Made by a program: the position numbers and the translations under genes
The notes under the pieces: generated by a model
Database searches by the model: none
Told to the model about the DNA's origin: nothing
What the model saw: only the letters and a program-made list of their open reading frames with translations
From: Minisyncoccota bacterium
Lineage (GTDB): Bacteria; Patescibacteriota; Minisyncoccia; UBA6257; XYB1-36-10
DNA: 64,000 nt
NCBI GenBank assembly: GCA_041651415.1
Contig: JBAZJH010000001.1
Coordinates: forward strand, 215,713 to 279,712
Reading direction: 5' to 3'
Part shown: positions 7,355 to 56,262 of the stretch, piece after piece
Numbering within the stretch: the first letter of the stretch is position 1
How the letters are laid out: every line of letters begins with the position of its first letter

Positions 7355-7418
7355 AAAACTCCACGGCCGTAAGGCTGTGGAGTTTTAAGTTTCGCCCCAC
7401 AGAAAGGCGGTGTAAATA
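7355..7418. repeat. intergenic mosaic palindromic repeat (modules A+B, degenerate copy)
   Basis: AAAACTCCACGGCCGTAAGGCTGTGGAGTTTT hairpin followed by GTTTCGCCCCACAGAAAGGCGG…. Same family as the copies at 9.6, 11.7, 31.0, 32.6, 35.2, 51.2 and 56.2 kb. Confidence 0.6.
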
Positions 7419-7421
7419 ATT

Positions 7422-8153
7422 TTAATAGACGATATCTACGCCTTTTAAGACAGACTTTATCTTCTCCCCTTCCCCTGCCGGAAGATTATTTTTATAGATA
7501 TAAAGAGTGTCTAAATTCTTCAAGCCGGATATTTTTTCGGAAATGGCGGAAAAAAGCTTATTATTTGCCAAATCCAATTTAGTTAAAGAAGAAAGCGTCC
7601 AAAGTTCATCAGGAAGAGAAGAAAGAGAGTTAACATTCAAATAAAGCTCGGAGAGATTGGAAAGACTACCGATAGAAAGAGGGATCTCAGAAAGCTGATT
7701 ATTAGTCAGGTTTAAAACCACAAGCGAAGAAAGACTGCCGATATTTTCCGGCAAAGAAGAAAGAGAGTTATTGCTCAAATCAAGCAGACGCAAACGAGAA
7801 AGTTTGCCGAGACTAACCGGAAGTTCTTTCAAGCCGTTTTTTGAAGCGTGAAGCTCGACCAGATTCTCGAATTTATCAATATCGCCGGGAAGCGAACCGA
7901 GACCGGCATTATTCAAATCAAGCCAGCAAACGCTTTCCGGATTTTTTTGAGCTTCTTTCAAATCGGTGAAAGGATGTTCTTTGTCGCCAAGACAGAAACT
8001 TTTTCTTTTTTCCGTTAAATTAATTTCCGGCAAGACTGCTGATTCTTCTTGTTGAGATTTATTTTTAAGAAAACCGAAATAAAAGAAAGCGGAAACGAGA
8101 ACAATAAAAATAATAACAAAAACAAAGGAAAGTATCTTTTTATTATTTTTCAT
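7422..8153 (-). CDS. leucine-rich-repeat (LRR) surface protein with N-terminal membrane anchor
   Basis: N-terminal transmembrane/signal anchor, then about seven 22-23 aa repeats of LxxLxLxxNxLxxLPxxIGxLSx (e.g. LDLSNNSLSSLPENIGSLSSL). Confidence 0.75.
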   Translation of the reverse strand: MKNNKKILSFVFVIIFIVLVSAFFYFGFLKNKSQQEESAVLPEINLTEKRKSFCLGDKEHPFTDLKEAQKNPESVCWLDLNNAGLGSLPGDIDKFENLVELHASKNGLKELPVSLGKLSRLRLLDLSNNSLSSLPENIGSLSSLVVLNLTNNQLSEIPLSIGSLSNLSELYLNVNSLSSLPDELWTLSSLTKLDLANNKLFSAISEKISGLKNLDTLYIYKNNLPAGEGEKIKSVLKGVDIVY

Positions 8154-8324
8154 AAGATAATTATAGCATTTTAAAGAAATAAAAAAGTCCGGCCGGCAGG
8201 CCTAAGAGTGGAAAAGTTAATCAAGAGAGGCAAAAGCAACAACCGCAAGCAAGAGATTTTTTAATTTCTTCATAAACGCGCGGGGCTTTCGCGGAGATTA
8301 ACAAATAAGATATAATAAGGAACA

Positions 8325-9098
8325 ATGTTTTATAAAAAAGAGAACGAGGCGGAATTCAGAGAAAAAGCAGGATATGAGATAGGAGAAGAATGGTATCCGA
8401 GAGTGACAAAAATAATGGAAATAAAATCAAAACCGGCGCTTTACCGGTTTTATTCGGCTGTCGGTTTTGATAACGGAGAGAAAATAAAAGAAAAATCGGC
8501 GACGGAAGGGACGATGGTGCATGAGGCCGTCCAAAAAATAATGGTCGGAGAAGACCCGATAGTGCCTTTAGAAATCAAGCCGGCCGTGGACGCTTTCATA
8601 AAATTCAAAGAAAGAAATTTGATTGAGGCCTATCCGGAACTCATTGAAAAAAGGGTCGTTCATAATTTTTTCCGCTACGCGGGGACAGTGGACGCCATAG
8701 TCAATTTAAACGGGCGATTTGGGGTTTTAGACATAAAAACCTCTCAATCGGTCTATCGGGATTACAATCTGCAGACAGCGGCTTATTTTGACGCTTTAAA
8801 AGAGAAGTTTCCGGAGCTTTCCGCCAGGTGGATTTTAAGAATCGACCAGGCGCAAAAATGCATGGCGTGCGGAGCGGTTTTAAGAACAAAAGGAGGCCGA
8901 AAAAAAATCACCAAGCCGTTTCCTTATGTAAACGGAATGTGTAAGGAAGAAGAGCACGCTTGGTCGGACCCGCAAGGAATTATTGAACTTTCCGAATCTC
9001 CCGCCTCCCATGAGAATGATTTTGAAGCGTTTCTTGGAGCCAAAAGATTGTGGGAATGGGAAAATGAGACGATGCTTAAAAAAATAGGATATTTATAA
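8325..9098 (+). CDS. PD-(D/E)XK nuclease-superfamily protein (RecB/Cas4-like) with C-terminal Cys cluster
   Basis: RecB-family motifs in order: GTMVHEAVQ (motif I), GTVDAIV (motif II Asp), GVLDIKTS (D-x-K), QTAAYFDAL (QxxxY). Followed by CMACG…GMCKEEEH. Confidence 0.6.
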   Translation: MFYKKENEAEFREKAGYEIGEEWYPRVTKIMEIKSKPALYRFYSAVGFDNGEKIKEKSATEGTMVHEAVQKIMVGEDPIVPLEIKPAVDAFIKFKERNLIEAYPELIEKRVVHNFFRYAGTVDAIVNLNGRFGVLDIKTSQSVYRDYNLQTAAYFDALKEKFPELSARWILRIDQAQKCMACGAVLRTKGGRKKITKPFPYVNGMCKEEEHAWSDPQGIIELSESPASHENDFEAFLGAKRLWEWENETMLKKIGYL

Positions 9099-9100
9099 TA

Positions 9101-9319
9101 TTATTCGGAGCATTTTTCGATAACGATAGGAATATTTTTAAATTCCTGAAAATAAAGATAACCGAGAGCGAAGCTTAAAGAAGAAATAAGCATAACAAGA
9201 ATAAAGAGAATCATCTCTCTCCCCTTTTCCCTGAAAAAGTCTTTGATTTTTTCCATATTTGAATTATATTGACTTTTAAAAGAAAAATATAGTAAAATAG
9301 CTTGATATGGCACATACAA
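9101..9319 (-). CDS. small membrane protein, unknown function
   Basis: ORF with one transmembrane segment in a short intergenic region. Weak support only. Confidence 0.25.
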
Positions 9320-9579
9320 AATCTGCGGGCTCTACCAGATTAGGGAGAGATTCCAAATCAAAAAGACTGGGAGTAAAGAAACAAGACGGCGAAGCAATAA
9401 GAGCGGGAGAAATAATCATCAGACAACGCGGAACGAAATATCATGGCGGAAAGAACATAAAGACAGGAGCAGACGATACGCTTTTTGCGGCAAAAGACGG
9501 AAAAGTAAAATTCTCCAGCAAGTTTAAAGCCGGATTCGATGGAAAGAAAAGAAAAATAACTTTGGTAGAAGTCAAATAA
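9307..9579 (+). CDS. rpmA: 50S ribosomal protein L27
   Basis: [16 protein letters not shown]… is the canonical L27 N-terminus. 90 aa. Confidence 0.9.
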
Positions 9580-9602
9580 AAAACCCGAAAGGGTTTTTTA
9601 TT

Positions 9603-9724
9603 TTTATTAAATCTCCGCTTCAAACCCCTTAAGATAGCGCGCGGGGTTTGAAGCGGTAAAGATTTAAAATAAACCCCGACTTTCTACGGGGTGAAACTTT
9701 ATAGCCGAAGGCTGTGAAGTTTCG
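9603..9724. repeat. intergenic mosaic palindromic repeat (modules C-B-A, inverted orientation)
   Basis: Contains GGGGTTTGAAGCGGTAAAGATTTAA, AAACCCCGACTTTCTACGGGGTGAAAC and a GAAGGCTGTGAAG hairpin. It is the reverse complement of the layout at 11735-11895. Confidence 0.65.
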
Positions 9725-10168
9725 TTACTCTTCTTTTAAAATAATAATTTTCAGGTCGGCAAAAATTTCCGGAGTCAAGAAAATTCTTAGCGGATATTCT
9801 CCGAGCGTTTTTAAATGACTTTCAAATTCAATTTTGAAAGGCAAAAAGCCAAATTCTTTTTCAAAAATTTGAGAAATATCCTTTTCGGAAACTGAACCGA
9901 AAAGTTCTCCCTTCTCCCCCGCTTTTCTTGAAATTTCAAAAACCCGACCGGAAATTTTTTCTTTTTCTTTCAGAGCCAGATAATTTTTTTCTTCGTTTTT
10001 AACAAGAGCAGATTTTTTTTCCAGCTCTATTTTTTCAACTGATTTGGAATCGGCAATTTTGGCTAGCCCTCTCGGAATAAGAAAATTGCGAGCGTAGCCG
10101 TCCGAAACATTTTTGACTTCAAAACGGCGCCCGATTTTTTTGACGTCTTCCAGCAAGATTATTTTCAT
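9725..10168 (-). CDS. rplI: 50S ribosomal protein L9
   Basis: [36 protein letters not shown] is the canonical L9 N-domain. Confidence 0.9.
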
Positions 10169-10173
10169 AAGAT

Positions 10174-11430
10174 TTATTGCTGTTTAATTATTTCCAAAGC
10201 TTTTTCGAGCTGAGGGTCTTTCTTTTGTTCTTTGTCTTCTTCAGTAATTTCAACTTTATAATCAGGTTCAAGACCTTCTTCCTTTAAGATTTGTCCGCTC
10301 GGCAGGACCCACTCGGCGATAGTAAGTTTAACCATAGAGCCATCGGCCAAGTAATTGAGTTCCTGAACAGTTCCTTTGCCGAAAGTTTTCTCGCCGACTA
10401 ATTTCACGCCACGCAAATCGCGAAGAGCGCCGGCCAAAATTTCGGAAGCAGAAGCGGAACCCTTATTGACCAAGATTACCGTTGGAAAATTTTTCAACGC
10501 TTCATTGCCGGTAGCGACAAAATCGTCTTTTTTTCCGTCGCGGAAACGCTCACTGACAACCACTTTGCCATTTTCCACAAACCAGCCGGACAAACGAGTA
10601 GCCACCTCGAGATAACCACCTGGATTGTTTCTTAAATCAAGCACCAGGCCTTTGGCTCCGGAGAATAGCGACTTAATCATGGCTTCATAAAAAAGCGGAA
10701 GAGAATTTTCATTAAAACCCATCAATTTTACATAAGCGATATCCCCTTTCATTTCCCATTCAAGAGTCGGAACTTTTATCACTTCTCTTATAATAGAAAA
10801 ATCTTTTGCCTCTTTGAATCCATCGCGGAAAATAGAAAGAATAACCTTTGTGCCGACATCCCCTCTTATTTTTTTAACAGCAGAATTGGCATCCAAAGAA
10901 CTGATTTCTTCTCCATCTACTTTAAGAATAAAATCTCCAGCTAAAAGCCCGGCGCGTTCAGCAGGAGTATCTTTTAAAGGAGCAACAACAACTAAACGCC
11001 CATTTTTTGATTCAATCTCCATACCCACGCCGCCAAAAGAGCCTTTAACATCTTCTTCAAATTTTTGCGAATCCTCAGGAGGAAGAAAAACAGAATAAGG
11101 GTCTTTTAATGAAGAAACAAGCCCGGCCATGGCACCATACATTAAATCTTTATCTTTAACTTTTTCGCCGGCTATATGCTTTTCTTTAATCATTCCCCAA
11201 ACTTCCCAGAAAGGATTCAAGCTGATTCCTTCTTTATTTTCAACCCCTTCCCCGCCGGAAGTTTTTATTTCTTGAAACTTTTGCGCGCCAAAATAAAAAC
11301 CAAGATAGAAAGCGAAATAAACCGCAACAAAAGAAGCGGTGGAAGCGATAATAATTTTTTGATATCTTTTTCTTTTTTCGTCCATAAGTTTAGATTCTTT
11401 TATTTTAGCAAGGTAATTAAAAGCGAGCAA
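10174..11430 (-). CDS. ctpA: carboxyl-terminal processing protease (S41 family) with PDZ domain
   Basis: N-terminal transmembrane helix, PDZ region, S41 catalytic region (…[16 protein letters not shown]… and …[15 protein letters not shown]…). Confidence 0.85.
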
Positions 11431-11470
11431 GCAGGTTGCTTTTAATGAAAGGCGAGATAAGATAAAAGCG

Positions 11471-11737
11471 ATGGAAGGCGTAGAAAAAGAAAAATACCTG
11501 GAAGAAATAAAAAAACGGAAGAAAAAATCCCGCGTTTATAAAAGATTCCAATTGATCGGACTTGAGATTGCCATGCATCTTGAAGACGAGAAGCACAAAT
11601 CGCTTTATATAAAAATGGCGAAATTCGGCGACTCGGATAAATTGCTCGCTCTTGCAAAAAATATCGGGGAGAATAAAAAAGCAAAAAATAAAGGAGCTTA
11701 TTTTATGAAAATGGCTATAAAAAAACTGGAAAAATGA
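11471..11737 (+). CDS. hypothetical small basic protein
   Basis: 88-aa K-rich ORF. Followed by mosaic repeat and hairpin+T-run terminator at ~11862-11895. Weak ribosome-binding site. Confidence 0.35.
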   Translation: MEGVEKEKYLEEIKKRKKKSRVYKRFQLIGLEIAMHLEDEKHKSLYIKMAKFGDSDKLLALAKNIGENKKAKNKGAYFMKMAIKKLEK

Positions 11738-11895
11738 AACTCCACGGCCTTACGGCCGTGGTATCCTGAGTTTCACCCCGCAGAAAGGCGGGGTTTATTA
11801 AATCTTTACCGCTTCATCCCCGCGCTAACGCGCGGGGTTTTTGCAAAGATTTAATAAATCCCCTTGGCGGAAAATTCCGTCAAGGGGTGTTTTTA
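11735..11895. repeat. intergenic mosaic palindromic repeat (modules A+B+C plus terminal hairpin)
   Basis: GAAACTCCACGGCCTTACGGCCGTGGTA, then GTTTCACCCCGCAGAAAGGCGGGGTTTATTAAATCT, then TTACCGC…CCCCGCGCTAACGCGCGGGG…AAAGATTTAATAAA. Ends with CCCCTTGGCGGAAAATTCCGTCAAGGGG and a T-run. Confidence 0.7.
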
Positions 11896-12036
11896 ATTTA
11901 AACTTATTCCTTTCTTTATTTCTTCGTTTTTAAAAAAATCAAAAATGTTTTTTATTTCCGCCTGAACTTTTTCAAGGACTTGATCCCAATCAAAACAATT
12001 GGGACAAACAAAAACAGAAGCTACCGATACGTTCAT
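11893..12036 (-). CDS. candidate small ORF (47 aa) with strong ribosome-binding site
   Basis: AAAAGGAGGAAGGAAATG places a near-perfect Shine-Dalgarno sequence 6 nt before the ATG. Encodes MNVSVASVFVCPNCFDWDQ…. Not in the six-frame track, which has a 60-aa cutoff. Confidence 0.25.
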   Translation of the reverse strand: MNVSVASVFVCPNCFDWDQVLEKVQAEIKNIFDFFKNEEIKKGISLN

Positions 12037-12062
12037 TTCCTTCCTCCTTTTTATGTTTATAT

Positions 12063-12091
12063 TTGCCAAAAAGCTTTTGATACAATAATAT
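12063..12091 (+). promoter_or_regulatory. sigma70-like promoter upstream of def (TTGCCA-17-TAATAT)
   Basis: The -35/-10 hexamers have 17-nt spacing. A conserved ATTCCGACCcAAGTCGGA hairpin follows at 12128-12146 in the leader. Confidence 0.3.
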
Positions 12092-12174
12092 AAAGAAAAG
12101 GAAAAGTAAAGATTTAATAATCAAGCGATTCCGACCCAAGTCGGAGCGCAAAGCGAAATTTATATAAATTTGGC

Positions 12175-12684
12175 ATGAAAATTCTAACGATTGAAAAAAG
12201 AGAGGAGGAAAAGTTTCTGCGGAAGAAAACCGCGGAGTTTGATTTTTCCAAGTTTTCCAAAAAAGAAATAAATGAACTTCTCAAGGAAATGAGGAAAACG
12301 ATGAAAGAGAAAGACGGAGTGGGGCTCGCCGCCAATCAAGCCGGTTTTCTTTTTTCCATGTTTGTGGCGGAATCCCCCGCGCAAGGCGCCACGAGAAAAA
12401 GATTTTACGCGGTGTTTAATCCGAAAATAGAAAAAGTTTCCAAAGAAACGGAAAAGGATATTGAAGGTTGCTTAAGCGTGCCGGAAGTGATGGGAGAAGT
12501 GGAAAGATATAAAAAAATAACCGTTTCGGGATTTGACAGAAACGGCAAAAAAACAAAATTAAAAGTTTTTGGGTATACGGCAAGAATTTTTCAACATGAA
12601 ATCGACCACTTGAACGGAATTCTTTTTATTGACCGAGCTTCAAAAAAATTCAAAGTAACGGGAGAAAAAGTGATGAGAGGATAA
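12175..12684 (+). CDS. def: peptide deformylase
   Basis: All three PDF motifs: GVGLAANQ (motif 1), EGCLSVPE (motif 2), QHEIDHLNG (motif 3). Confidence 0.9.
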   Translation: MKILTIEKREEEKFLRKKTAEFDFSKFSKKEINELLKEMRKTMKEKDGVGLAANQAGFLFSMFVAESPAQGATRKRFYAVFNPKIEKVSKETEKDIEGCLSVPEVMGEVERYKKITVSGFDRNGKKTKLKVFGYTARIFQHEIDHLNGILFIDRASKKFKVTGEKVMRG

Positions 12685-12731
12685 AAATAAAAATATTAAT
12701 ACTTAATAATACATTGTAGTGACGCATTAGA

Positions 12732-12917
12732 CTAGTTTGATTCAAGAGGTGGTGAAAACTTTATTATTTTTTCCTCAATAGAAAGAGGTTGAGATTTGAT
12801 TTTGTTTTCTCTATCTTTTTTAACTATTCTCTCTGATTCAGAAATTGTTATTCTTATTTTTATATCTTGATTATTAGGAGAAATTGCCATTATGTTTTTT
12901 AATGAATGATATTGCAT
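12732..12917 (-). CDS. small hypothetical protein inside AT-rich insertion
   Basis: 61-aa ORF 12 nt downstream of the ClpP-like gene on the same strand. Same AT-rich codon usage as its neighbour. Confidence 0.3.
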   Translation of the reverse strand: MQYHSLKNIMAISPNNQDIKIRITISESERIVKKDRENKIKSQPLSIEEKIIKFSPPLESN

Positions 12918-12929
12918 ATTATTTAAGTT

Positions 12930-13862
12930 TTAATTTATTTCAGTATTAGCTAATTTAGATTCTTTTAATACAAAATCAATATAAACGTTTTCTTTACCCA
13001 AAACAAAATTATTTGATATTTGATTTAAAGTTTGTTCATATTCATTACCAAATTCTGTTGATTTTTTAATATTCGATAAAAATCTAGAAATTAAATCATA
13101 GTCAATTACATATCCATGATCAGGACAACCATTAACTAAATAATCAACGAGTATATTTTTATTTTCGTTTGAAATATCAGGATTGTAAAGTGATAAAATT
13201 CTTCGAGCATATTGTTCACCAATATCTAATTTTCTATTTTTATCTCCTATTTTGTACGGATTTATTTGTTTTAAGAGTGGTTCGTAAAATTTTGCTAAAT
13301 AATCAAGAATTTGTTTAGAAAGTTCATTTTTATTAATATGAATAAGATCACTCGTGTATAAGTCGGTAAACATTTTTAAATATAATTCTCGCGAACGAGT
13401 TTCTATTCTATTTAGTGAGTTTTCATCTATTAATGCACTTTCACTTTCAATATCTGGTCTATCATCTAATTCCTTTGGAATTTGCACATCTATCGGACCA
13501 AATTCACCGAACTCATCCATTATAATTTGAGAACCCCCTAACGAAAGTAATGTAGCGGCACTTTTTGCCCAAAAAGGTACAATAATATTTACTTTTGAAA
13601 AGTTTTTTCGAAGAGTCCTGATAATCCTATAAGCATCATCAGCACTTCCACCTGGTGAGTTTATAATAAAATCAATTTCATTAGAGAGAGGATTATCAAA
13701 TTTAAATTGTTGAATTTTTCCTCTTAATTTCATGAGAGTTTTAGGATTAATAACCTCAACAAATAGAAATTGCGGAATTTTCCTAATCTCTGATAGTTTT
13801 TTAATAAGTGATATGATTTCATCCATATGCCTAAAGTTTACATTGAGTGAAGCGAAATGCAA
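12930..13862 (-). CDS. ClpP/S49-fold serine peptidase-like protein (SDH/ClpP-class N-domain plus unknown C-domain)
   Basis: N-domain has IINSPGGSADDAYRIIRTL and …FWAKSAATLLSLGG…, which parallel the ClpP/SppA oxyanion and Ser regions. ~180-aa C-terminal extension of unknown function. Strongly AT-biased codons unlike the flanking def/fmt. Confidence 0.55.
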   Translation of the reverse strand: MHFASLNVNFRHMDEIISLIKKLSEIRKIPQFLFVEVINPKTLMKLRGKIQQFKFDNPLSNEIDFIINSPGGSADDAYRIIRTLRKNFSKVNIIVPFWAKSAATLLSLGGSQIIMDEFGEFGPIDVQIPKELDDRPDIESESALIDENSLNRIETRSRELYLKMFTDLYTSDLIHINKNELSKQILDYLAKFYEPLLKQINPYKIGDKNRKLDIGEQYARRILSLYNPDISNENKNILVDYLVNGCPDHGYVIDYDLISRFLSNIKKSTEFGNEYEQTLNQISNNFVLGKENVYIDFVLKESKLANTEIN

Positions 13863-14730
13863 ACTAGAGTGAAGCTCGATGAAATATTACTTATAACATC
13901 CATTATTTATAAGCTTTTTTTGGTTTTTTTGGCTCATTTTAGATAATAATTAGGTGTAGTGCTTGACATATTATTTAAAGTATGATATATTATATTTATA
14001 ATTAAAAGTTCTTTAAAAATAAGTAAAGTTTCCTACATAGCTTTGAGTTGATTATTTTAGTCACCTGCAAGCTGTGTGGGAAAATTTTCTCATTCAGCCA
14101 AACTATAGGTTGGCCGCTAATAACCTACTAAAAAAGCGGAGAAAAAAATGAGAATCGTATTGAATACGAAAATTAGCGTTGGTTTTTTGGGGGGGAGTTG
14201 CCGGGAATTTGGTCCAGAAGCAAATTTTTTTCCCGAGAAATGCGTTTGCAAATCGTGGGGAGTAATTGCAAGCGGATCAATGACGCCCACTGGCAAGGGC
14301 TCAGAAACAAAAGAGCCCTACAAAATATATCTCCCATGGCACGTGATTATGTCGATGAATGAGACATATTAATTAGTAGCATACATCAATCCCTGCACAA
14401 AGGTTCTAATCCTGCGTGTAGGGGTTTTTCTTTCCCAAAAAAACTAAAAAGAGCTCAATTTAAAAATAGAAATTATAAACAATATTTTATCGGGCGCAGC
14501 CAGATATACGGTGTTAGATAATGTAGCGACTGCAAGGAGCTATTTTATCTAACTCGTTTATATGCGAAGTGTTTTCGTATATTAAACACAATAATGCACT
14601 TTTTGCGAATATTGTGTATGATTTAGTTATACTAAAAATATCAATGAGCGTCTATTTAAAAAACTTGAATATGAATCGCAGCTTCGCAAATTTAGCTTTA
14701 AAACTATAAAAAATCCTTTAATATAAAATT

Positions 14731-20674: not shown

Positions 20675-20795
20675 AAATTTTCGCGAAAATTATAAAAACA
20701 AATGAATAGAATTTAAATAACTAAAATATAAATAAACCCTTTTAATATTACGAAAAGAAAAAACAAAAAAATTCAAAGCGCTTGTTTTGTTAATC

Positions 20796-20858
20796 TATTT
20801 TCAAGCCTGCCTGCTGGTAGGCAGGGCAGGTAGGCGGCAGGCAGGAATTTAAGAATGG
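20796..20858. repeat. palindromic repeat family 2 (AAGCCTGCCTGC(C/T)GGTAGGCAGG…)
   Basis: TTCAAGCCTGCCTGCTGGTAGGCAGGGCAGGTAGGCGGCAGGCAGGAATTTAAGAA. Related copies at 57181-57212 and 58521-58565. Confidence 0.5.
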
Positions 20859-31038: not shown

Positions 31039-31147
31039 AAACGAAATTCAAGATTGAGTTTCACCCCGCCTACGACGGGGTTTTATTAAATCTTAGCCGT
31101 AAAAACCTCGCGCTAACGCGCAATGTTTCTACGGAGATTTAATAAAA
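31039..31147. repeat. intergenic mosaic palindromic repeat (modules B+C), nearly identical to the copy at 32572-32688
   Basis: …GATTGAGTTTCACCCCGCCTACGACGGGGTTTTATTAAATCTTAGCCGTAAAAACCTCGCGCTAACGCGCAATGTTTCTACGGAGATTTAATAAA. Confidence 0.7.
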
Positions 31148-31267
31148 AAAGAAGGGGTTATTGGAGGGAGAAAGAAACAATCCACCGTTGGAAGAATTTC
31201 TCCGGAGAAAAAGACCAATAACCAGCCTTCTTGTGTAAAAAAGATAGCAGAAGAAAAAAGAAAAAGC

Positions 31268-31308: not shown

Positions 31309-31405
31309 AATGAAGTTCTTCGACAAGCTCAGAAACTAAAACTTGCTTTTTAAAACTTATGAAGTTCTTCGACAGGTTTAGAAACTGAAACTTATTTTTT
31401 TTAGA
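31309..31405. repeat. tandem ~49-nt direct repeat (2 copies) immediately 3' of rplL
   Basis: ATGAAGTTCTTCGACAAGCTCAGAAACTAAAACTTGC… followed by ATGAAGTTCTTCGACAGGTTTAGAAACTGAAACTTA…. A related CTTCGACAAGCTCAGG segment recurs at 32540. Confidence 0.5.
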
Positions 31406-32303: not shown

Positions 32304-32571
32304 TTTTTTGAAATAAAAACGACCTTTAAATAATAAGGTCGCAGACATAAACAAACATTGTTCTCGGCAGGAGATTAAGCTAAAGCAATTCCGACCTAAG
32401 TCGGAACACTCAATTTTTTAGATAAATTTTGAAAAAATTTATAAAAAATTGGTGGCACCTGCGGTCTGCGAACATTTGTATTGTATTTTAAAAGGAAAGA
32501 AAAGTCAAACAAGGAAGCCTCATGCCTATCGTCAGGCAGGCTTCGACAAGCTCAGGGAATAAGAGAAAAGC

Positions 32572-32688
32572 GGAGATTTAAACGAAACTCAATTTTGAGT
32601 TTCACCCCGCCTACGACGGGGTTTTATTAAATCTTAGCCGTAAAAACCTTGCGCTAACGCGCAATGTTTCTACGGAGATTTAATAAAA
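32572..32688. repeat. intergenic mosaic palindromic repeat (modules B+C), near-identical direct copy of 31039-31147
   Basis: GGAGATTTAAACGAAACTCAATTTTGAGTTTCACCCCGCCTACGACGGGGTTTTATTAAATCTTAGCCGTAAAAACCTTGCGCTAACGCGCAATGTTTCTACGGAGATTTAATAAA. Confidence 0.7.
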
Positions 32689-35147: not shown

Positions 35148-35274
35148 TTTATTAAATCTTCGCGAAAACCCCGCGCGTTAGCTAGGGAGTTGAAGCGGTA
35201 AAGATTTAATAAACCCCGCCTTTCTGCGGGGTGAAACTCAGGGTACCACGGCCGTAAGGCCGTGGAGTTTCATT
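35148..35274. repeat. intergenic mosaic palindromic repeat (modules C-B-A, inverted orientation)
   Basis: …ATTAAATCTTCGCGAAAACCCCGCGCGTTAGC…GAAGCGGTAAAGATTTAATAAACCCCGCCTTTCTGCGGGGTGAAACTCAGGGTACCACGGCCGTAAGGCCGTGGAGTTTCA. Confidence 0.7.
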
Positions 35275-45013: not shown

Positions 45014-45260
45014 AATTTTTCAAAAAAATAAAGGGCGGGCCCTTCAATAGTTTGAAATTAACCCATTTACGCGTGTCCTGAATTATAAAGCATCAGAAAG
45101 GGTAATGTCAAGAGAAAAAAACAACAGCAATAAATAGATAAAACTTTACATCCCAACGCGAGGGTTCGCGGAGATTTAATAATCTTTTTTTTGCTAAAAG
45201 AAACAAAAATCCCTCTGTTTTATTATAGAGGGATTTTTGAAAGAAATAGATAGAACTTAT

Positions 45261-45605: not shown

Positions 45606-45607
45606 AT

Positions 45608-49614: not shown

Positions 49615-49624
49615 CTTGATTTAT

Positions 49625-50035
49625 TTATTTAGGCCTCTTGGAACCGTATTTGCTTCTTTGCTGTTTGCGCTTCTCAACGCCGGCAGTGTCAAGAACGCCG
49701 CGAACGATATGATAACGAACACCGGGAAGGTCTTTGACGCGGCCGCCACGGAGAACAACCACGGAGTGCTCCTGAAGATTGTGGCCTTCGCCCGGAATAT
49801 AAGCGGTCACTTCCATGCCGTTTGAAAGCTTGACTCTTGCCACTTTACGAAGAGCCGAGTTCGGCTTTTTCGGAGTGGTGGTAAAAACTTTCAAACAGAC
49901 TCCCCTTTTGAAAGGAGAAGGAGAATCAACGGGCTTGTTTAAAATAGTATTAAAATACAGCCGAAGAGCCGGAGTTTTTTGTTTTTTAGCGGAAGTTTTT
50001 CTTCCTTTTCTGACTAATTGATTGATTGTGGGCAC
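49625..50035 (-). CDS. rpsL: 30S ribosomal protein S12
   Basis: [12 protein letters not shown]…[11 protein letters not shown]… S12 signature. Confidence 0.95.
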
Positions 50036-50261
50036 AATAGAAGTTAAAAGTTTGTAAAGTTGAAAGTTAAAAGGACAATAATAATCGCGGGCAAGATAGC
50101 CTGCGGTTTTTAAATATAAGGCAAGAGATGCGTATTGTCAAATGACGAATTACTAATTTCTAATAACCAACTAATTATTAATAAATGACAAAAAAATAAA
50201 TTTTTCTAAATCAAGCCAAAAAATAATAAAGCTTTTAAAATTCAATAGAAAAAAGATATTT

Positions 50262-50885
50262 TTAAAAAACCAGAGAGGAACCTATTAAAAGATAAAAAAT
50301 AGCTTCGGAAATCGGGGAGATAAAAACGAAAGCAACAAGAAGAGCGATAAAAATGCCAATATAACCAAGTTTTAAAAAATGGCGGAAATATTTCGGAAAG
50401 AGAACGGCAACGATTTCTGAACCATCAAGAGGCGGGATGGGAATAAGATTGAAAACAGCAAGAACGATATTGGTGTAAACCACGAGTTCCAAAAAGAAAA
50501 TCGCGTTAGCGGAAAGGAGTCCGTAAGAAACAAGAAAAGGAGCGACAAATCTGATGAAAAGGCCGAAAACGGCGGCGATAGACAAGTTGGCGGCAGGACC
50601 GGCTAAAGCAACTTTCAGGGAACCATATTTTTTATCGGAGAGATTATAAGGATTATAAGGAACAGGCTTAGCCCAGCCGATAAAAATTCCGGAAGAAAAT
50701 AAAAGCAAGAGCGGAAGAATAATAGTGCCGAAAGGGTCAAGATGAGGAATAGGATTTAAAGTAAGGCGTCCGGCGCGTTTGGCAGTGTCGTCTCCCAATT
50801 CATAAGCCATAAGCCCATGAGCGTATTCATGAAAAATAGCCGAGACTATAATAACGAGATAAGTAAAAAAAGGAGATAAAGACAT
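50262..50885 (-). CDS. M50/site-2-protease-like membrane metalloprotease (small)
   Basis: HExxH in the first transmembrane helix (IFHEYAHGLMAYELG). Polytopic. 207 aa. Confidence 0.55.
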   Translation of the reverse strand: MSLSPFFTYLVIIVSAIFHEYAHGLMAYELGDDTAKRAGRLTLNPIPHLDPFGTIILPLLLLFSSGIFIGWAKPVPYNPYNLSDKKYGSLKVALAGPAANLSIAAVFGLFIRFVAPFLVSYGLLSANAIFFLELVVYTNIVLAVFNLIPIPPLDGSEIVAVLFPKYFRHFLKLGYIGIFIALLVAFVFISPISEAIFYLLIGSSLVF

Positions 50886-50949
50886 AGTTTTGCTTGCTTT
50901 TTGTGTTTCCTTATATTACACTAATTAAACTATTAAGGCAATAAAAAAT

Positions 50950-51132
50950 ATGAAACAATGTGAAATTTGCGGCAGAGGTTCCATAATGCGCAACAAAAGA
51001 GTAAAGTTGCGCGGAAATTACAACCCGACCGGAACAACCAGAAAGAAACCGAATTTGCAAAAAACTTTTTATAAAGGAGAAAGTATTTTATCCTGCACGA
51101 AGTGCATAAAAAGACAAAAGAAAGCAAAGTAA
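50950..51132 (+). CDS. rpmB: 50S ribosomal protein L28
   Basis: MKQCEICGRG…L.GNYNPTG…K… zinc-ribbon L28. Hairpin+T-run terminator at 51131-51165. Confidence 0.85.
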   Translation: MKQCEICGRGSIMRNKRVKLRGNYNPTGTTRKKPNLQKTFYKGESILSCTKCIKRQKKAK

Positions 51133-51174
51133 AAATTTTCCGCTTAGGGCGGAAATTTTTTTTTATGAAGTTTT

Positions 51175-51312
51175 TTACGCGCAATGTTTCTACGGAGATT
51201 TAAACGAAACTCAATTTTGAGTTTCACCCCACAGAAAGTCGGGGTTTTATTAAATCTTAGCCGTAGAAACCTTGCGCTAACGCGCAATGTTTCTACGGAG
51301 ATTTAATAAAAA
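51175..51312. repeat. intergenic mosaic palindromic repeat (partial C + B + C)
   Basis: CGCGCAATGTTTCTACGGAGATTTAAACGAAACTCAATTTTGAGTTTCACCCCACAGAAAGTCGGGGTTTTATTAAATCTTAGCCGTAGAAACCTTGCGCTAACGCGCAATGTTTCTACGGAGATTTAATAAA. Confidence 0.7.
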
Positions 51313-51428
51313 AAACCCTCTGGCGGAGGGTAAGGCCAGAGGGAAAACGGTTCGGGAGGAACCGCAGCAACCGGGAATCTCTTCTCTATCTTGTGCTATT
51401 TTTTATGATAGTTTAAAGGAAAAAAAAG

Positions 51429-51998
51429 TCAATACCCAGTAGACTTGCCAATTTGGCGATTTATAGAAAATGAAGAACCGTCCAGTGACGCGCCTAAAGA
51501 ATAAGATTCATCACCGCAACCATTTGTAATTAACGGTATGATATTAGGGACCGGACCAAAAATCCAAAGATTGTGTTTTTTGCTCGCCTCTTCTAAATCT
51601 TGAGCAAAAGAGAGAATTCTTTTAATGAAGGTGTTTTCTTTCCAAGAAAGTTTTGGCCAAGCGGCTCCGCAAATTCTTGAAATGAAATCAATTTTAATTT
51701 CATTCAAATCCGGCCTGATAGCCTTTAATTCCTCTTCGGTAACGACTCTAAGTTCATAAGGAGAAGAGATTGAAAACGGTTCACCAAATTTCTTTTCACA
51801 AAAAGGGCCTCTTCCATCCCAGAAACAAGACGGACCTTTTACTGCGACATGACGAATTATTCCGTTTTTCATCAAGCCATAGATAGGCCAACCGGTTCCC
51901 CGCGAAAAAGCGATCGCGAAAGCATAGCATTCCCCATCAAGACAAAAAGATTTTATGAAAGACCGAAGTTCTTTTCTATTAATCGGCGATATTTCCAT
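51429..51998 (-). CDS. hypothetical Cys-containing protein
   Basis: 189-aa ORF with normal codon usage. No recognisable motif. Confidence 0.4.
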   Translation of the reverse strand: MEISPINRKELRSFIKSFCLDGECYAFAIAFSRGTGWPIYGLMKNGIIRHVAVKGPSCFWDGRGPFCEKKFGEPFSISSPYELRVVTEEELKAIRPDLNEIKIDFISRICGAAWPKLSWKENTFIKRILSFAQDLEEASKKHNLWIFGPVPNIIPLITNGCGDESYSLGASLDGSSFSINRQIGKSTGY

Positions 51999-52148
51999 AG
52001 TGCGCCTCCGAACACAGGTTTATAAAAAAGCTCAAAATATAATAAATGACTTTTAGTGTTTCGTCAATATCAGACAAAAAACAATCTTGTGAAAAAGAGC
52101 CCGGTCAGATAAGATAAAAGAAAAGTTTTGTTTTTAAAGTATTTCTAA

Positions 52149-52219
52149 CGGGCTGTCGTATAACGGAAGTACGCATGCATGGGGTGCATGTAGCCCGGGT
52201 TCAATTCCCGGCAGCCCGA
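52149..52219 (+). tRNA. tRNA-Pro (anticodon GGG)
   Basis: Acceptor CGGGCTG/CAGCCCG with the C1:G72 pair typical of tRNA-Pro. D-stem GTAT/GTAC. Anticodon stem CATGC/GCATG with loop ATGGGGT. T-arm CCGGG-TTCAATT-CCCGG. Discriminator A. CCA not encoded. Confidence 0.8.
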
Positions 52220-52366
52220 CAAAGATAAGCGCAAAAAAACAAAGTTTGATATAAAACAGATTTAAATCGGGTTCTTAGCCAGAGTCCGTCTTTAATGGAA
52301 ATTCCCGGCCCGCTTCGCCGAGACAAAAGCGAGGCGAGCAGCCCAACCAACTTTAACTTTTTTCTT

Positions 52367-52395
52367 GACTTTAAATAATATCTGTGCTATAAAAA
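52367..52395 (+). promoter_or_regulatory. sigma70-like promoter TTGACT-17-TATAAA
   Basis: Near-consensus hexamers with 17-nt spacing, ~65 nt upstream of the 52461 gene. Confidence 0.4.
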
Positions 52396-52460
52396 GCAAG
52401 GTTTTAAATTGCGGTGTTTTGCCGCAAAAGCACATAAAAAATTAAAAAGGAGAAAGAATC

Positions 52461-52964
52461 ATGGGACAAAGATGGAAGGATTATGAGGGTGCGTTGGAAT
52501 ATGGACCGAAAAAAATTGTCGTAAAGGTTATTTTGGGACTTTTTTCGGTCGCTGTTTTGGTTTTTGTTCTCGGATATATGTTTGGTTGGTTCGGTGAAGC
52601 AGTAATGTTAGCGAAAGAGGAATTCGGACCGCGCGCCATGCTTGAAAAGTATGAGTGGTTTAAAGATGCCGCCGCTCAACTTGAAAAAAAGCAGGCAGAC
52701 ATTGCTGTTTACAACGGACGCTTAACGGCGATGAACGGGACTTATAAAGACCTCGCTCGCCAGAAGTGGCCGCGTGAAGACCGGGAACAATATAACATTT
52801 GGACATCGGAAGTCGCCGGAGTAAAAGCAAGTTTTAATGCGCTTGCTGCCGATTACAATGCCCAAATGGCCAAGTTTAATTGGCGATTCGCTAATGCCGG
52901 AGATTTGCCTAAAGGAGCGGATAAACCGCTTCCGCGAGAATTTAAAGAATACATTTCCCAATAG
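52461..52964 (+). CDS. membrane-anchored protein of unknown function
   Basis: One N-terminal transmembrane helix, then a soluble ~120-aa domain. GC-richer than neighbours. Good Shine-Dalgarno AAAAGGAGAAAGAATCATG. Confidence 0.45.
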   Translation: MGQRWKDYEGALEYGPKKIVVKVILGLFSVAVLVFVLGYMFGWFGEAVMLAKEEFGPRAMLEKYEWFKDAAAQLEKKQADIAVYNGRLTAMNGTYKDLARQKWPREDREQYNIWTSEVAGVKASFNALAADYNAQMAKFNWRFANAGDLPKGADKPLPREFKEYISQ

Positions 52965-52998
52965 TTCCAGGAATCAAACGAAAGAAAGGAAAATACAA

Positions 52999-53553
52999 AT
53001 GAAGAAAGCATCCGTAGTTTTCACTTTTGTTTTAGCGCTTGGCATCTTAACTGGATGCGGACCCCAAGTTCAATCTGTATCCGGAACTAAGATGGCAACA
53101 GTCGAGGAAGTCAAAACCGGCTCTAACGGACTGACGGTTGAACAACAAAACATATCGGATCGCATTATTATGGACAACCAACCCGGCGCCATCAAACACT
53201 TGTATGTTGTTTCCGCTTATAGTGGACAGGTCATTATTTATTCCACTGTCCGCGGAAAAGTAACAAGTAGCGGGAAAAGATTAACACCAGACAGTGTTGT
53301 AAATAGTGTAAATAATTTCCGTTTTAATATAAGCGGAATGGAATTTTGTACAGATAAGGTTCTAGGAGAAGATGGGACCTATGGATCGTCTATAGAATAC
53401 TTGTATTGGTGGGATGCGAAAGGAGTTTACCATCAGCAATACGTAACCGGCGGCATGATTCTTCATGTTTCCGACCAACCGCTTGCGGTTAAGGGAATTA
53501 TCATTAATATGGAAATTACCCAAAAACCGGAAGTGGAAGCAAAAGAAGAATAA
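52999..53553 (+). CDS. lipoprotein of unknown function
   Basis: Lipobox …LGILTGC. Start at MKKASVV…, which has its own ribosome-binding site. The track ORF from 52837 is an upstream read-through overlapping the previous gene. Hairpin terminator at 53575-53605. Confidence 0.5.
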   Translation: MKKASVVFTFVLALGILTGCGPQVQSVSGTKMATVEEVKTGSNGLTVEQQNISDRIIMDNQPGAIKHLYVVSAYSGQVIIYSTVRGKVTSSGKRLTPDSVVNSVNNFRFNISGMEFCTDKVLGEDGTYGSSIEYLYWWDAKGVYHQQYVTGGMILHVSDQPLAVKGIIINMEITQKPEVEAKEE

Positions 53554-53621
53554 AGAGGAGAAAAAACCAACAACGCCTTACGGAGAAATCCGCAAGGCGT
53601 TTTTTATTAAATATTTTTAAA

Positions 53622-54557
53622 TTAGTTTTTTATTTTTTGTTTGAAAGAATCGATAAGAGGCGTAGATAAAGGATTTACTCCGGAAGATTTGGCAATGGAA
53701 AGAGAAGCCCAGCCCGCAATGAGAAGAGAAGAAAAAATCTCTTCAAAAACATTATCTCCCTTCGATTCGTTCACGAGAACGGATTTAAAGATTTCGGAAG
53801 TAACGGCCATTCTTTTTTTAATCATCGCCGAGTCGCGAGAAGAAGAAAGAAAAATAAAAGCAAATTTATTTAAGCCGGAAGAAAAACCTTCCATTTCGTT
53901 ATGATTCAGTTCCGGAAAATAATTGGCAAAAGCGGGAATTTTGGCGGTTTCGTTGAATTTTATTTTCCAAGCGTAAGCGAGCGGGAAATTAAGAAGGGAA
54001 GAATAAACGACAGGAATCTTGCCGGAAATAAATTCGGCAAATTTTTCTCCGTCCTTGATAAAAGATTCCGGGCGGAATTTAGAAGAAAGAGAAGAAACTT
54101 CTTCCTCTTCTTTTTTAAGACCGATTAATTTAAGGAGAGCTTTTAAAGAAAAGCCGAGGGCAAGGCGAGGCGGAAAACCGGCAGGAATTTTTACAAAAGG
54201 AATTTTGTTTTCCAGAGCCAGACGAAGAAGCTGGCCACCAGAGGAAACAACGGCAAGATTCAATCCCTTTTTTAAAGATTCATTAAAAACATCAAGCGTT
54301 TCTTCGGTTTCGCCGGAATAAGAAGAACAGATAATAAGAGAATCATTTAAAAAATAATCGGGAACGCGAGGAAGTCCGTAGTCGCGATGGATAAGAAGGT
54401 CCAGTTTTGGAGCGGCAATTTTAATAAATCCGGCTGATAAATGGGAACCGCCCATACCAGCGACAATAAACTTATCCGCGCCTTTTAAATTTTCTGAATT
54501 GATTATTTCAGGCTGAAAAGCAAATTGGGCGGAAAAGTTTTTAAGGATATTTTCCAT
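53622..54557 (-). CDS. bifunctional phosphoglucose/phosphomannose isomerase-type SIS-domain protein
   Basis: SIS motifs FIVAGMGGSHL and ICSSYSGETEETL. Size (311 aa) typical of the PGI/PMI family. Confidence 0.65.
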   Translation of the reverse strand: MENILKNFSAQFAFQPEIINSENLKGADKFIVAGMGGSHLSAGFIKIAAPKLDLLIHRDYGLPRVPDYFLNDSLIICSSYSGETEETLDVFNESLKKGLNLAVVSSGGQLLRLALENKIPFVKIPAGFPPRLALGFSLKALLKLIGLKKEEEEVSSLSSKFRPESFIKDGEKFAEFISGKIPVVYSSLLNFPLAYAWKIKFNETAKIPAFANYFPELNHNEMEGFSSGLNKFAFIFLSSSRDSAMIKKRMAVTSEIFKSVLVNESKGDNVFEEIFSSLLIAGWASLSIAKSSGVNPLSTPLIDSFKQKIKN

Positions 54558-54615
54558 AAAAAGATTATAACATAAAACCGGTCCGATTATATCGGACCGG
54601 TTTTTAAAAGAAAGA

Positions 54616-55389
54616 TTAATTTGCCAAAGCTTTGTCTAAAACAGATTTTATGAATTCAGTTGGATAAGCGCCTGGAATAGTACCCACGTAACCTTTTTCG
54701 TTAAAAACAAGAGAGTAAGGAGTGCCTTCAGCGCCGTTTTTTGAACCTTCGGCAGCTTCAGAGGCTACAGAAGAAGCATATTTACCGGAATCAAGGCAAG
54801 AAGAAAAAGCTTTTTCGTCTATACCCAGAGTTTTAGCGATATCAGACAATTCAGCGATTTTAATCTGTTCGTTTTTGAAAAGTTCATCGGCAAATTTCCA
54901 GAAAGCGTCATTGCCGCCAAGTTCGGCAACACATTCGGAAGCTTCCGCCTTTTTTTCCGCTCCGGCATGAATGCTTAAAGGAAAGTGGCGGTAAATCCAA
55001 GCAACTTTTCCGGTATCGATATAATCAGCTTTAACATCATTCAACATAGTTTCCTGAAATTTTCCGCAGAAAGGACATTCCAGGTCGGAATATTCATAAA
55101 TTTTAACGAAAGCATTGCGGTCGCCAAGAATATGGTCAGTATCCGAAACAGGAGAAACCGATATTTCTGTTTTTGCGCCAAGAGATTCTTCCACTTTTGC
55201 CTGTTCGCCATTTTTAACTGAAGGACTGGAGTCATAAACAACAGCTCCCGCGATAAGAAGGCCGGCGACAATAATGGAACTTGCGATAATATAAATGTTA
55301 TTTTGTTCTTTATTATTTTCTGACATTTTAAATAAGTGAATTATAAAAGGCGAGATAAGTATAAAAGAAAAGGAAAAAGTTATCAACAA
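54616..55389 (-). CDS. DsbA-like thiol:disulfide oxidoreductase with N-terminal membrane anchor
   Basis: CPFC active site (YSDLECPFCGKF) inside a thioredoxin fold. N-terminal transmembrane helix. Exact start uncertain. Confidence 0.75.
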   Translation of the reverse strand: MLITFSFSFILISPFIIHLFKMSENNKEQNNIYIIASSIIVAGLLIAGAVVYDSSPSVKNGEQAKVEESLGAKTEISVSPVSDTDHILGDRNAFVKIYEYSDLECPFCGKFQETMLNDVKADYIDTGKVAWIYRHFPLSIHAGAEKKAEASECVAELGGNDAFWKFADELFKNEQIKIAELSDIAKTLGIDEKAFSSCLDSGKYASSVASEAAEGSKNGAEGTPYSLVFNEKGYVGTIPGAYPTEFIKSVLDKALAN

Positions 55390-55394
55390 AAAAG

Positions 55395-55775
55395 AGGGGG
55401 TTGAAAATAAAAAAGAGGTTTGATAATATTGAAATCAGTACTTCAAACCGGTTATAGAAGAACTGAAGGAAGAGTAAAACTCAAACGACTTATGGAAGCC
55501 GTTTGGGCGGAAAATGGGAAGCGGTTCGACCGCACTTTGCTTGGTTATCAACAAACCGGCAAAAGGAGAAATATCATGTTGAAAGACAAAATGGTCGCGG
55601 GTTCCCGCGGTCAACCACAGGAATTCGGTTTCGGTTTTGAGTCTACAGTGTCTACAGTTCGGTTCTGCGACAGCGACGCGGTGGAGACTACTCTCTAAAG
55701 AGCACGCGCTTAGTGCATAGGGGGGAGATGTCTTCTACCCGGCCCGAGGCAAAAAGTCTCGGGCCTTTTAATTTT
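55395..55775 (+). other. cassette copy A: promoter (TTGAAA-17-TAATAT), ~140-nt conserved leader, SD+sORF (55576-55698, 40 aa), intrinsic terminator
   Basis: The leader CAGTACTTCAAACCGGTT…AGAGTAAAACTCAAACGACTTATGGAAGCCGTTTGGGCGGAAAATGGGAAGCGGTT is repeated almost exactly in copy B. Shine-Dalgarno AAAAGGAGAAATATCATG. Terminator GGCCCGAGGCAAAAAGTCTCGGGCCTTTT. Confidence 0.45.
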
Positions 55776-55776
55776 T

Positions 55777-56145
55777 AATATTGACAAAAAATAAATCGAT
55801 TTGATATTATAAAAGCAGTACTTCAAACCGGTTGAAGAAAGAGTAAAACTCAAACGACTTATGGAAGCCGTTTGGGCGGAAAATGGGAAGCGGTTTCGGC
55901 CGCACTTCGCTTGGCTAGCAAGCCAGCGGAGGGAGAAATTATCATGTTTACCCAAAAGACGGCGACCTGTGGATGTCCACGCGGTCGCCCGGAAACGATG
56001 GCTCAGTTTTTTTCAGTCACGACGGCCCCCAGAATCAGCGACGCAGTGGAGACTTTCCAAAGCACACGCTAAGGTAAACACCCCAAGTGCGTAGGAACTC
56101 TCCTACCCGGCCCGAGACAAAAAGTCTCGGGCCTTTTAATTTTTA
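55777..56145 (+). other. cassette copy B: promoter (TTGACA-18-TATTAT), conserved leader, SD+sORF (55944-56072, 42 aa), intrinsic terminator
   Basis: Same leader minus a 16-nt segment. Shine-Dalgarno GGAGGGAGAAATTATCATG. The peptide differs from copy A except for a shared …SDAVET… stretch. Terminator GGCCCGAGACAAAAAGTCTCGGGCCTTTT. Confidence 0.45.
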
Positions 56146-56150
56146 ATATT

Positions 56151-56262
56151 GAAATGAAACTCCACGGCCTTACAGCCGTGGTATCTTCAAGTTTCACCCC
56201 GCCAAAGGCGGGGTTTTATTAAAAATGAAGCCCCGCAGCCCTATGGTCGTGGAGTTTCATTT
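56151..56262. repeat. intergenic mosaic palindromic repeat (A+B enclosed by a long inverted repeat)
   Basis: ATGAAACTCCACGGCCTTACAGCCGTGGTA…GTTTCACCCCGCCAAAGGCGGGGTTTTATTAAAAATGAAGCCCCGCAGCCCTATGGTCGTGGAGTTTCAT. Confidence 0.65.

Follow-up and report, generated by a model that had tools for sequence, protein, structure and literature searches.

What are the palindromic hairpin sequences that recur between the genes of a 64,000-nucleotide stretch of Minisyncoccota DNA (contig JBAZJH010000001.1, positions 215,713 to 279,712, referred to here as the window), and how did they come to lie there? Among the genes of the window are the S10-spc ribosomal operon, tuf, fusA, secY and others related to them, and the SecY proteins closest to its own bear the label Candidatus Pacebacteria or Paceibacterota, which belong to Patescibacteria. 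Eight copies and two fragments of a family built from three hairpin modules, A, B and C, had been predicted from the sequence and likened to the repetitive extragenic palindromes (REPs) and bacterial interspersed mosaic elements (BIMEs) of enterobacteria. A census with nhmmer profiles, one for each module, recovered all eight copies and both fragments at the predicted positions, at 20-100 times the chance expectation. The core sequence GAAACTCCACGGCC (up to 2 mismatches) has 7 matches where 0.31 are expected by chance, GCGGGGTTTTATTAAATCT (up to 3 mismatches) has 7 where 0.06 are expected, and a repeat finder recovers the same module families as D1, D2, D3, D5 and D11. Together the elements sum to ~1 kb, or ~1.5% of the window. 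Comparison with related genomes indicates that they are very likely mobile, insertion-derived mosaic hairpin elements.

The evidence that carries this reading comes from relatives in which the corresponding sites are empty. Three relatives were used (L numbers denote the other sequences compared): L034 (SecY 97% identical in amino acids and 86.5% in nucleotides), L037 (SecY 87% and 78%, respectively) and L039 (Fpg 83% identical in amino acids). Gene order in the window is syntenic with that of L034 and L037 (S10...SecY-adk-map-NUDIX-rplJ-rplL-tRNA-Val-pyrF). An empty site was found at all four testable loci, namely rplL/tRNA-Val, NUDIX/rplJ, secY/adk and the 3' end of fpg. In intergenic alignments, both L034 and L037 lack the copies at 31039, 32572 and 35148 and retain the hairpins on either flank; where the window has the 32572 copy, L037 holds unrelated sequence with a possible degenerate C-like remnant. 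Module profiles run over L034-L039 (15-21 kb of syntenic contigs) found no copy anywhere. The copy at 56151 has a clean empty site in L039 and lies between stop codon and terminator. Here, the fpg gene of L039 ends in CAA AAG TAA AAAATTAAAAGGCCC, whereas the window reads CAA AAA TGA AAC, the remainder of the element and then AAAAATTAAAAGGCCC, the TGA of the element falling at the same codon as the TAA of L039, and Fpg is still 287 aa long. An upstream stop codon is likewise supplied from within the AATGAAAC end to an 88-aa open reading frame (ORF) at 11735 (TGA), to an ABC-transporter gene of L006 and probably in L007. Strain-level empty sites were also sought via identical L27, L7/L12, EF-Tu and LepA proteins, which led only to the same strain. 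The elements are recent insertions without counterparts in close relatives, and, judged from these alignments, gain in the lineage of the window is the parsimonious reading. All copies and fragments are collected in Table 1.

Table 1. Copies and fragments of the hairpin family in the window. Coordinates are window positions; ^ marks a junction, here and in the text.
Feature	Position	Strand	Remarks
A-B copy	7352..7415 (census span 7352-7413)	+	A is a perfect palindrome with 14-bp stem and loop GTAA; B degenerate; no C
Fragment, right half of module C	8275..8301	+	E 1e-4; TATAAT-like box and gene start follow
Full C-B-A copy	9603..9726	-	Starts 1 base past the rplI stop codon; C end abuts a terminator
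Full A(long)-B-C copy	11733..11858	+	C end abuts the terminator hairpin at 11860-11887
A(short)-B-C copy	31039..31146	+	Between rplL and tRNA-Val; site empty in two relatives
12-nt C remnant and A(short)-B-C copy	32570..32687	+	Between NUDIX terminator and rplJ promoter/L10 leader; empty in L034
Full A(long) copy, C-B-A	35148..35274	-	Between secY and adk, next to a conserved terminator; empty in both relatives
Fragment, right half of module C	45155..45182	+	Between rpsJ and rplC; E 3.5e-4
Half-C and full A(short)-B-C copy	51176..51310	+	Right half of C joined head-to-tail at AGATTTAA^ACGAAAC
A(long)-B-inverted A copy	56153..56261	+	18-bp inverted terminal repeat; its end gives the fpg TGA stop

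Further remnants lie at 51176-51203, at 32570-32581 and possibly at 12110-12120. The terminator touching the C end of the 9603 copy is bidirectional and shared with rpmA.

Several features of the surrounding sequence should be recorded alongside these copies. Window 8275-8330 and L027 8475-8528 share a right half-C, (G/A)TATAATAAGG and an ATGTTT start at 85% identity, with two different genes downstream; a promoter-bearing element end may have been co-opted. Between the rplL terminator and tRNA-Val, a long hairpin at window ~31150-31260 (-) reads AAGAAGGCTGGTTATTGG ... CCAATAACCCCTTCTT followed by a T-run, and its conservation extends to L034 and L037. This hairpin may represent an attenuator or a small RNA, and the 31039 element is inserted right past its T-run. 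Directly downstream of the 32572 element, window 32305-32489 (-) resembles an L10 leader (38.4 bits against an Rfam threshold of 44, E 3e-4), and the window lacks a part of this region that the relatives have. A tandem duplication of ~370 bp (87-98% identical) at window 55401-56159 comprises a small ORF, a promoter-like region and a terminator, all of which L039 has as a single copy. Finally, a second, unrelated palindromic family of the form ..ATCTATTCTTAAATTCTCAA-GCCTGCCTGCCGGTAGGCAGG.. with a GAGCTTGTCGAAG motif is found at window 20780-20850, 57177-57205, 58500-58560 and 32520-32553 (-), and also at 31330 (-) and 25497 (-); its copy in the NUDIX-rplJ spacer is missing in both relatives.

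With copies oriented alike, a full unit reads (AA)TGAAAC, hairpin A, GTTTCA, hairpin B, TTT(T)A, module C and TAAAA(AAA). Hairpin B consists of CCCCGC, a loop and GCGGGG. Module C is a long hairpin whose outer stem is TTAAATCT/AGATTTAA and whose inner hairpin is GC-rich and varies between copies; it contains a perfect 13-bp inverted repeat (TTTTATTAAATCT/AGATTTAATAAAA). Module A occurs in a long form with the inner hairpin CCACGGCC-TTAC-GGCCGTGG, in a short form (GAAACTCAATYTTGAGTTTC) that equals the long form minus its inner 20-nt hairpin (compare the second L023 copy), and as a perfect palindrome of 14-15 bp, at 7355 and in L027. The initial description of module A needs correction on two points: in most long copies its 3' arm is not the full palindrome, and the copies at 31039, 32572 and 51175 carry the short hairpin GAAACTCAATTTTGAGTTTC without the inner CCACGGCC..GGCCGTGG. 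Folds of 16 copies predict three consecutive hairpins for every full copy, and in these folds and in an alignment fold subterminal hairpins lie at both ends. Compensatory changes are seen in 5 of 25 predicted pairs in a 14-copy B-C alignment, and the C'-B'-A' strand gives the more stable predicted fold in 13 of the 16 copies. The feet of the hairpins are GAAAC(T) for A, TTTCA for B and TTAAATCT for C. A conserved GT[AG]G or CGTC foot was sought on all three modules and none was found, GTAG being present solely within the stem of one C subtype.

The original prediction also held that the modules recur in different combinations and orientations, and this is borne out: A and C both occur either way round relative to B, and units are found nested and head-to-tail. 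Modules flip independently of one another, as seen from the loop of A, which reads TTAC or GTAA, from the A of the 7352 copy, which is flipped relative to the A of the other copies, and from the interior of C, which is inverted in L024. The head-to-tail junction AGATTTAA^ACGAAAC recurs at 32572 and 51175, beside the insertion sequence (IS) described below, and in L023 and L026. Searches against Rfam 15 at gathering thresholds matched only tRNAs, and at E<=1 no match overlapped the elements. Integron attC sites, clustered regularly interspaced short palindromic repeat (CRISPR)-like arrays and tandem interspaced guide RNA (TIGR) arrays were considered and dropped, as there are no regular arrays and no GTTRRRY core, and no cas or tas was found among the genes called or Pfam-scanned in the examined regions.

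The window was extended to 91.5 kb with identical ENA and JGI contigs, adding 12.5 kb on the left and 14.9 kb on the right. These 91.5 kb contain 11 B-containing copies, all intergenic, corresponding to ~1 per 8 kb; nine are on the + strand of the window and two on the - strand (two-sided binomial p ~0.07). Further copies, 1-3 per contig and in part arranged as tandem B-C-A-B-C arrays, were found on three additional short contigs of one JGI sample, and contigs built from short reads of the same strain stop within repeats (Logan contigs L029 and L031). Confinement of the family to the window had been named as an outcome that would speak against the prediction. Given the copies in 27 kb of flanks and on other contigs of the same sample, and contigs that break in repeats, the family is instead dispersed beyond the window. 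One ENA contig from the same population, L003, is 99.9% identical up to the middle of C in the 9603 copy and then continues into a different locus; its positions 10799-10871 correspond to window 9603-9678 and hold C alone, followed by DUF5680 and RNase J, which reflects either a real rearrangement or a chimeric assembly.

Beyond this organism, public collections were scanned with the B motif GTTTCACCCC-N8-11-GGGGTTT-N0-1-ATTA, the viral collection with a longer ...ATTAAA ending; the window's own genome is not among the viral, GTDB and JGI collections scanned. The viral collection gave 0 matches. Among 185,579 GTDB species representatives there were 3 matches, all with the family architecture: two on Patescibacteria metagenome-assembled genomes (MAGs) and the third a minimal copy on a contig labelled Gammaproteobacteria. 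The JGI metagenomes gave 6 matches, of which 4 are real and come from one sample and the same or a near-identical organism, while 2 are due to chance. The exact B motif is thus rare in public data. In copies from other MAGs (L005-L007), the A-B-C architecture is retained and changes in the stems are compensatory, that of the outer A stem going from GAAACTC/GAGTTTC to GAAACCT/AGGTTTC and that of C from AAATCT/AGATTT to AAATTC/GAATTT and AAATCCC/GGGATTT. Literature searches returned no description of such repeats in Patescibacteria, also known as the candidate phyla radiation (CPR).

The filled and empty sites also define where the elements insert. All three A-B-C insertions took place at ...TTTTTTTA^TTAAATCT, directly 3' of a hairpin and T-run, and at the junctions GCTCCGTTTTTTTT^ATTAAATCT, ACGGGCTTTTTTTA^TTAAATCT and CCCCTTCTTTTTTTA^TTAAATCT the C end lies against the T-run of a hairpin that is conserved in the relatives. 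The target for A-B-C can be written as TTTTTTT(A)^TTAAATCT and is orientation-specific (3/3), with the element strand 3' of the terminator reading C'-B'-A' (5'-TTAAATCT ... GGAGTTTCA-3'). A GC hairpin begins within 9 nt of the C end in 9 of the 14 copies examined. Terminal inverted repeats (TIRs) and target duplications were sought at the four filled/empty loci: the inserted units have no TIRs, the termini TGAAAC.. and ..AGATTTAA(TAAAA) being unrelated, and no consistent target duplication; the exception is the 56151 copy with its 18-bp inverted terminal repeat. That copy, the perfect 13-bp inverted repeat of module C and the occurrence of C alone in L003 are what would be expected of classical miniature inverted-repeat transposable elements (MITEs) whose units are C and A up to an inverted A, moved by a DDE transposase encoded elsewhere, for example of IS630 or IS5 type. 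However, comparison of filled with empty sites shows A-B-C to be the inserted unit, with unrelated termini and no consistent target duplication, its insertion is orientation-specific to the adjacent T-run, and no DDE transposase is present among the genes called in the 91.5 kb, making classical MITEs a highly improbable explanation.

That copies always lie between convergent or terminating genes, as first described, is roughly correct, but the 32572 copy has a terminator on one side and the rplJ promoter/L10 leader on the other, and co-directional genes flank the L027 copy. The proposed check of orientation relative to transcription was run on 9 copies scored against the gene whose 3' end precedes them, and gave a mixed result, with four co-directional (9603, 11735, 35148 and the L027 copy) and five antisense. 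Because orientation is mixed and modules flip independently, the arrangement points to DNA-level events and not to a conserved transcript, and mixed orientation in particular argues against a primary role at the RNA level; termination or mRNA stabilisation would be plausible as a by-product. This bears directly on the possibility that the repeats are selected functional cassettes, i.e. modular terminators, stabilisers of 3' untranslated regions or structured noncoding RNAs that are spread by recombination and kept for their RNA structure. All modules are terminator-like, B is followed by a T-run, a terminator scan flags the inner hairpin of C as well as A', and the compensatory changes seen in the B-C alignment and, for L005-L007, in the outer stems of both A and C would fit such cassettes, as would the position at gene 3' ends. 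Covariation between palindrome arms is, however, expected from DNA-level processes too, and besides the mixed orientation and the flipped modules, the elements are missing from close relatives at four of four tested sites and so are not needed there, each site already has its own conserved terminator, and Rfam gives no match. We therefore regard selected RNA cassettes as very unlikely.

A Y1 (HUH) transposase gene (PF01797) is located at window-equivalent 68.8-69.4 kb, 4.8 kb past the right end of the window, with modules on both sides. The called ORF of 208 aa starts inside module A; the real TnpA is ~151 aa long. TnpA scores 122 bits on the NCBIfam IS200/IS605 model NF033573 (cutoff 55) and 39 bits on NF047646, the model for REP-associated tyrosine transposases (RAYTs), which it fails (cutoff 80). 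Its Y motif, YVRHQ, is of the Y---Q type found in IS200-class proteins, whereas RAYTs carry Y..NP (motif table of Quentin et al., PMC6006769). More than 570 homologues at 74-84% identity are found mostly on contigs of 0.6-2 kb, a pattern that is the signature of a multi-copy IS collapsing assemblies; in the 91.5 kb, tnpA is present in one copy. The IS family is widespread in Patescibacteria. The prediction had suggested looking for a RAYT-like or GIY-YIG gene associated with the repeats: a module-flanked Y1 gene does exist, but it is IS200-type and not RAYT. A stand-alone 80-aa GIY-YIG gene is encoded at window 57268-57510 (-) (PF01541, E 2e-15), and GIY-YIG genes of 81-82 aa occur near IS200 copies in L012, L014 and L015. 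No shared repeat or other link between the GIY-YIG gene and the hairpin family was found, only proximity.

The ends of this IS were mapped from independent insertions in relatives (L008-L021). The left end reads TTA(G/A/T)TC...AAACCCCCAGC-loop-GCTGGGGTGTACG and the right end CCACC.G.CC-loop-GG..GGTGG-N4-TTAC^ or TTAT^. At the right end, the 4 bases 5' of the hairpin covary with the last 4 (AAAG/TTAC and AAAA/TTAT), recalling the guide/cleavage rule of IS608. The IS of the window's genome is intact and ~630 bp long (68848-69477, equal to L033 10070-10699), and interrupts an A-B-C copy precisely at the border of B (GCGGGGTTTTA^) and C. In 7 of 7 independent insertions of the family, the left-end junction follows a GC hairpin on its 3' side at no more than 9 nt, in most cases together with a T-run. 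The 5' ends of the IS family are TTAATCT, TTAGTCC or TTATCCC, and the elements begin with TTAAATCT.

The arrangement A-B-[tnpA]-C had also raised the idea that A-B-C is a deletion derivative of the IS, which was rejected: the ends derived from the seven insertions exclude A, B and C, so that A-B-C is not the IS minus its gene, and the IS was itself inserted into an A-B-C copy.

The same data bear on the question of whether this is a true REP/RAYT system (REPtron), in which REPs are spread by a single-copy domesticated RAYT located elsewhere, or by the present Y1 gene acting as one. Extragenic palindromes in a mosaic, alternating arrangement are what such a system would produce, and the only Y1 gene seen is single-copy in the 91.5 kb and has modules on both sides. 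On the other hand, the model scores and the Y---Q motif place the protein with IS200 and not with RAYTs, the mapped IS ends exclude the modules, the gene belongs to a multi-copy IS family, and a conserved GT[AG]G or CGTC foot is lacking on A, B and C. A REPtron in the strict sense is therefore quite unlikely.

As a whole, the observations are probably best explained by non-autonomous elements that move as single-strand hairpins, similar to REPs/BIMEs or to palindrome-associated transposable elements (PATEs). According to this explanation, the repeats are a lineage-specific, small (65-130 nt), non-autonomous type of mobile DNA composed of three hairpin modules, which inserts directly 3' of intrinsic terminators (a GC hairpin plus T-run). 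Each inserted hairpin creates a new hairpin target, so that nested copies (as with the inner hairpin in the long form of A), head-to-tail copies (GTTTCGT^TTAAATCT) and copies whose modules are flipped accumulate, giving rise to a BIME-like mosaic. A Y1 HUH transposase would move them in the form of hairpins of single-stranded DNA. The nearby IS200-type TnpA is the most likely candidate for the driver because its IS family shows the same geometry beside hairpins and a similar 5' end (TTAATCT / TTAGTCC versus TTAAATCT). We consider mobilisation by a Y1 transposase of this IS200 type possible, at somewhat less than an even chance. Side effects of insertion would be added terminator-like hairpins, sometimes an upstream stop codon, and broken assemblies or rearrangement.

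Sequence comparison between elements and IS gives marginal similarity. When run against ~150 kb of other genomes, the B profile matched nothing but left-end hairpins of the IS, in each case below threshold and on the reverse strand (E 0.03-0.09); against the left-end hairpin of the IS in its own genome, E was 0.23. Points in favour of a link to the transposase are these weak matches, the target geometry common to elements and IS family, an architecture of subterminal hairpins without TIRs or target duplications and with oriented insertion at a short T-rich target, the 9:2 strand bias and the more stable predicted fold of the C'-B'-A' strand. A number of points weigh against the explanation by single-strand hairpin elements and their proposed transposase. 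The reciprocal test was not significant, a profile of the IS left end matching B at E 1.6-10 and a profile of the right end giving no match to A. The inner hairpin of A (CCACGGCC-GTAA-GGCCGTGG plus 8 nt) resembles the right end of the IS (CCACCGGCC-CTAA-GGCCGGTGG plus 8 nt) by eye only. The single tnpA in the 91.5 kb perhaps landed in an element since B mimics a terminator, and another transposase, including a RAYT, may lie in the rest of the genome. The inverted repeats of the 56151 copy and of module C are as in classical MITEs, and the right-hand boundary of the insertions is blurred at three sites by diverged flanks. Lastly, the 9:2 strand bias and the bias in strand stability are drawn from few, partly related copies, and GC skew follows the coding strand here, hence the direction of the replication fork is not readable for the 9:2 bias.

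What do these elements add to the picture of Patescibacteria? Genomes of this group (CPR) are small and, according to the usual description, contain few repeats and little mobile DNA. In the present case, ~1.5% of 64 kb is made up of a young, expanding hairpin family that is missing in a relative with 97% identical SecY. The elements thus lend themselves to studying, in a natural setting, the origin of REP/BIME-like mosaics and the question of whether such mosaics can be driven by ordinary IS200 transposases. In practical terms, the repeats explain assembly breaks or mis-joins of this organism at these points, and they mark terminator-adjacent "safe sites" common to several mobile elements. 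A more far-reaching view, which we put forward as speculative and rather unlikely, is that an IS200-group Y1 lineage targeting "hairpin plus T-run" has spawned a REP/BIME-like population here without RAYTs, so that an early, still polymorphic stage in the birth of REP-type repeats would be seen in the streamlined genome of a symbiont, with elements perhaps already serving as stop-codon and terminator cassettes. The family adds a new example to a known kind of selfish DNA and is not a new kind of system; a new biological principle would be implied only if both a host function and the link to Y1 were established.

Several known systems share individual properties with these elements. Group IIC introns, as well as IS1397 and ISKpn1, which insert into REPs, are known to insert beside stem-loops or intrinsic terminators. 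The elements described here likewise insert right beside a stem-loop or terminator, in a "safe" intergenic site, but group IIC introns and IS1397/ISKpn1 use retro-homing or DDE chemistry and encode their own machinery. Modular composition is familiar from the BOX elements of Streptococcus pneumoniae, which consist of boxA, boxB and boxC modules, and Correia and enterobacterial repetitive intergenic consensus (ERIC) sequences are other mosaic intergenic repeats. As in these families, content is modular (A-B-C) and variable, predicted hairpins are stable and copies are intergenic near gene ends. BOX, Correia and ERIC are set apart by their description, having TIRs and/or a proposed DDE-type mobilisation, whereas the present elements lie beside terminators, and we know of no sequence relationship between the two groups.

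REPs/BIMEs (REPINs) and their RAYTs (TnpA-REP) have been described in E. coli and Pseudomonas (PMC6006769, PMC3116915, PMC5581495). The likeness to REP/BIME suggested at the outset stands as far as the modular mosaic of short, imperfect, terminator-like intergenic palindromes near gene 3' ends, arranged in both orientations, and a Y1 HUH gene flanked by repeats are concerned. It does not extend to the GTAG/CGTC foot, which is absent, or to the transposase, as the Y1 protein here is IS200-class and no RAYT-class protein was found in the 91.5 kb; moreover, the host belongs to Patescibacteria and three different hairpins enter together as one element of 105-130 nt. Unlike REPINs and RAYTs, which are described as long-lived and vertically inherited, the elements are missing from close relatives. 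PATEs, in turn, are non-autonomous derivatives of IS200/IS605 elements (PMC3119063, PMC7290912, PMC10055086). The present elements differ from PATEs in that the homology of their ends to the resident IS is marginal and in that they are not simple deletion derivatives joining the left and right ends of that IS. They share with PATEs the absence of TIRs and target duplications, subterminal hairpins, insertion in a single orientation beside a short target, a co-resident IS200-type TnpA and possibly a strand bias.

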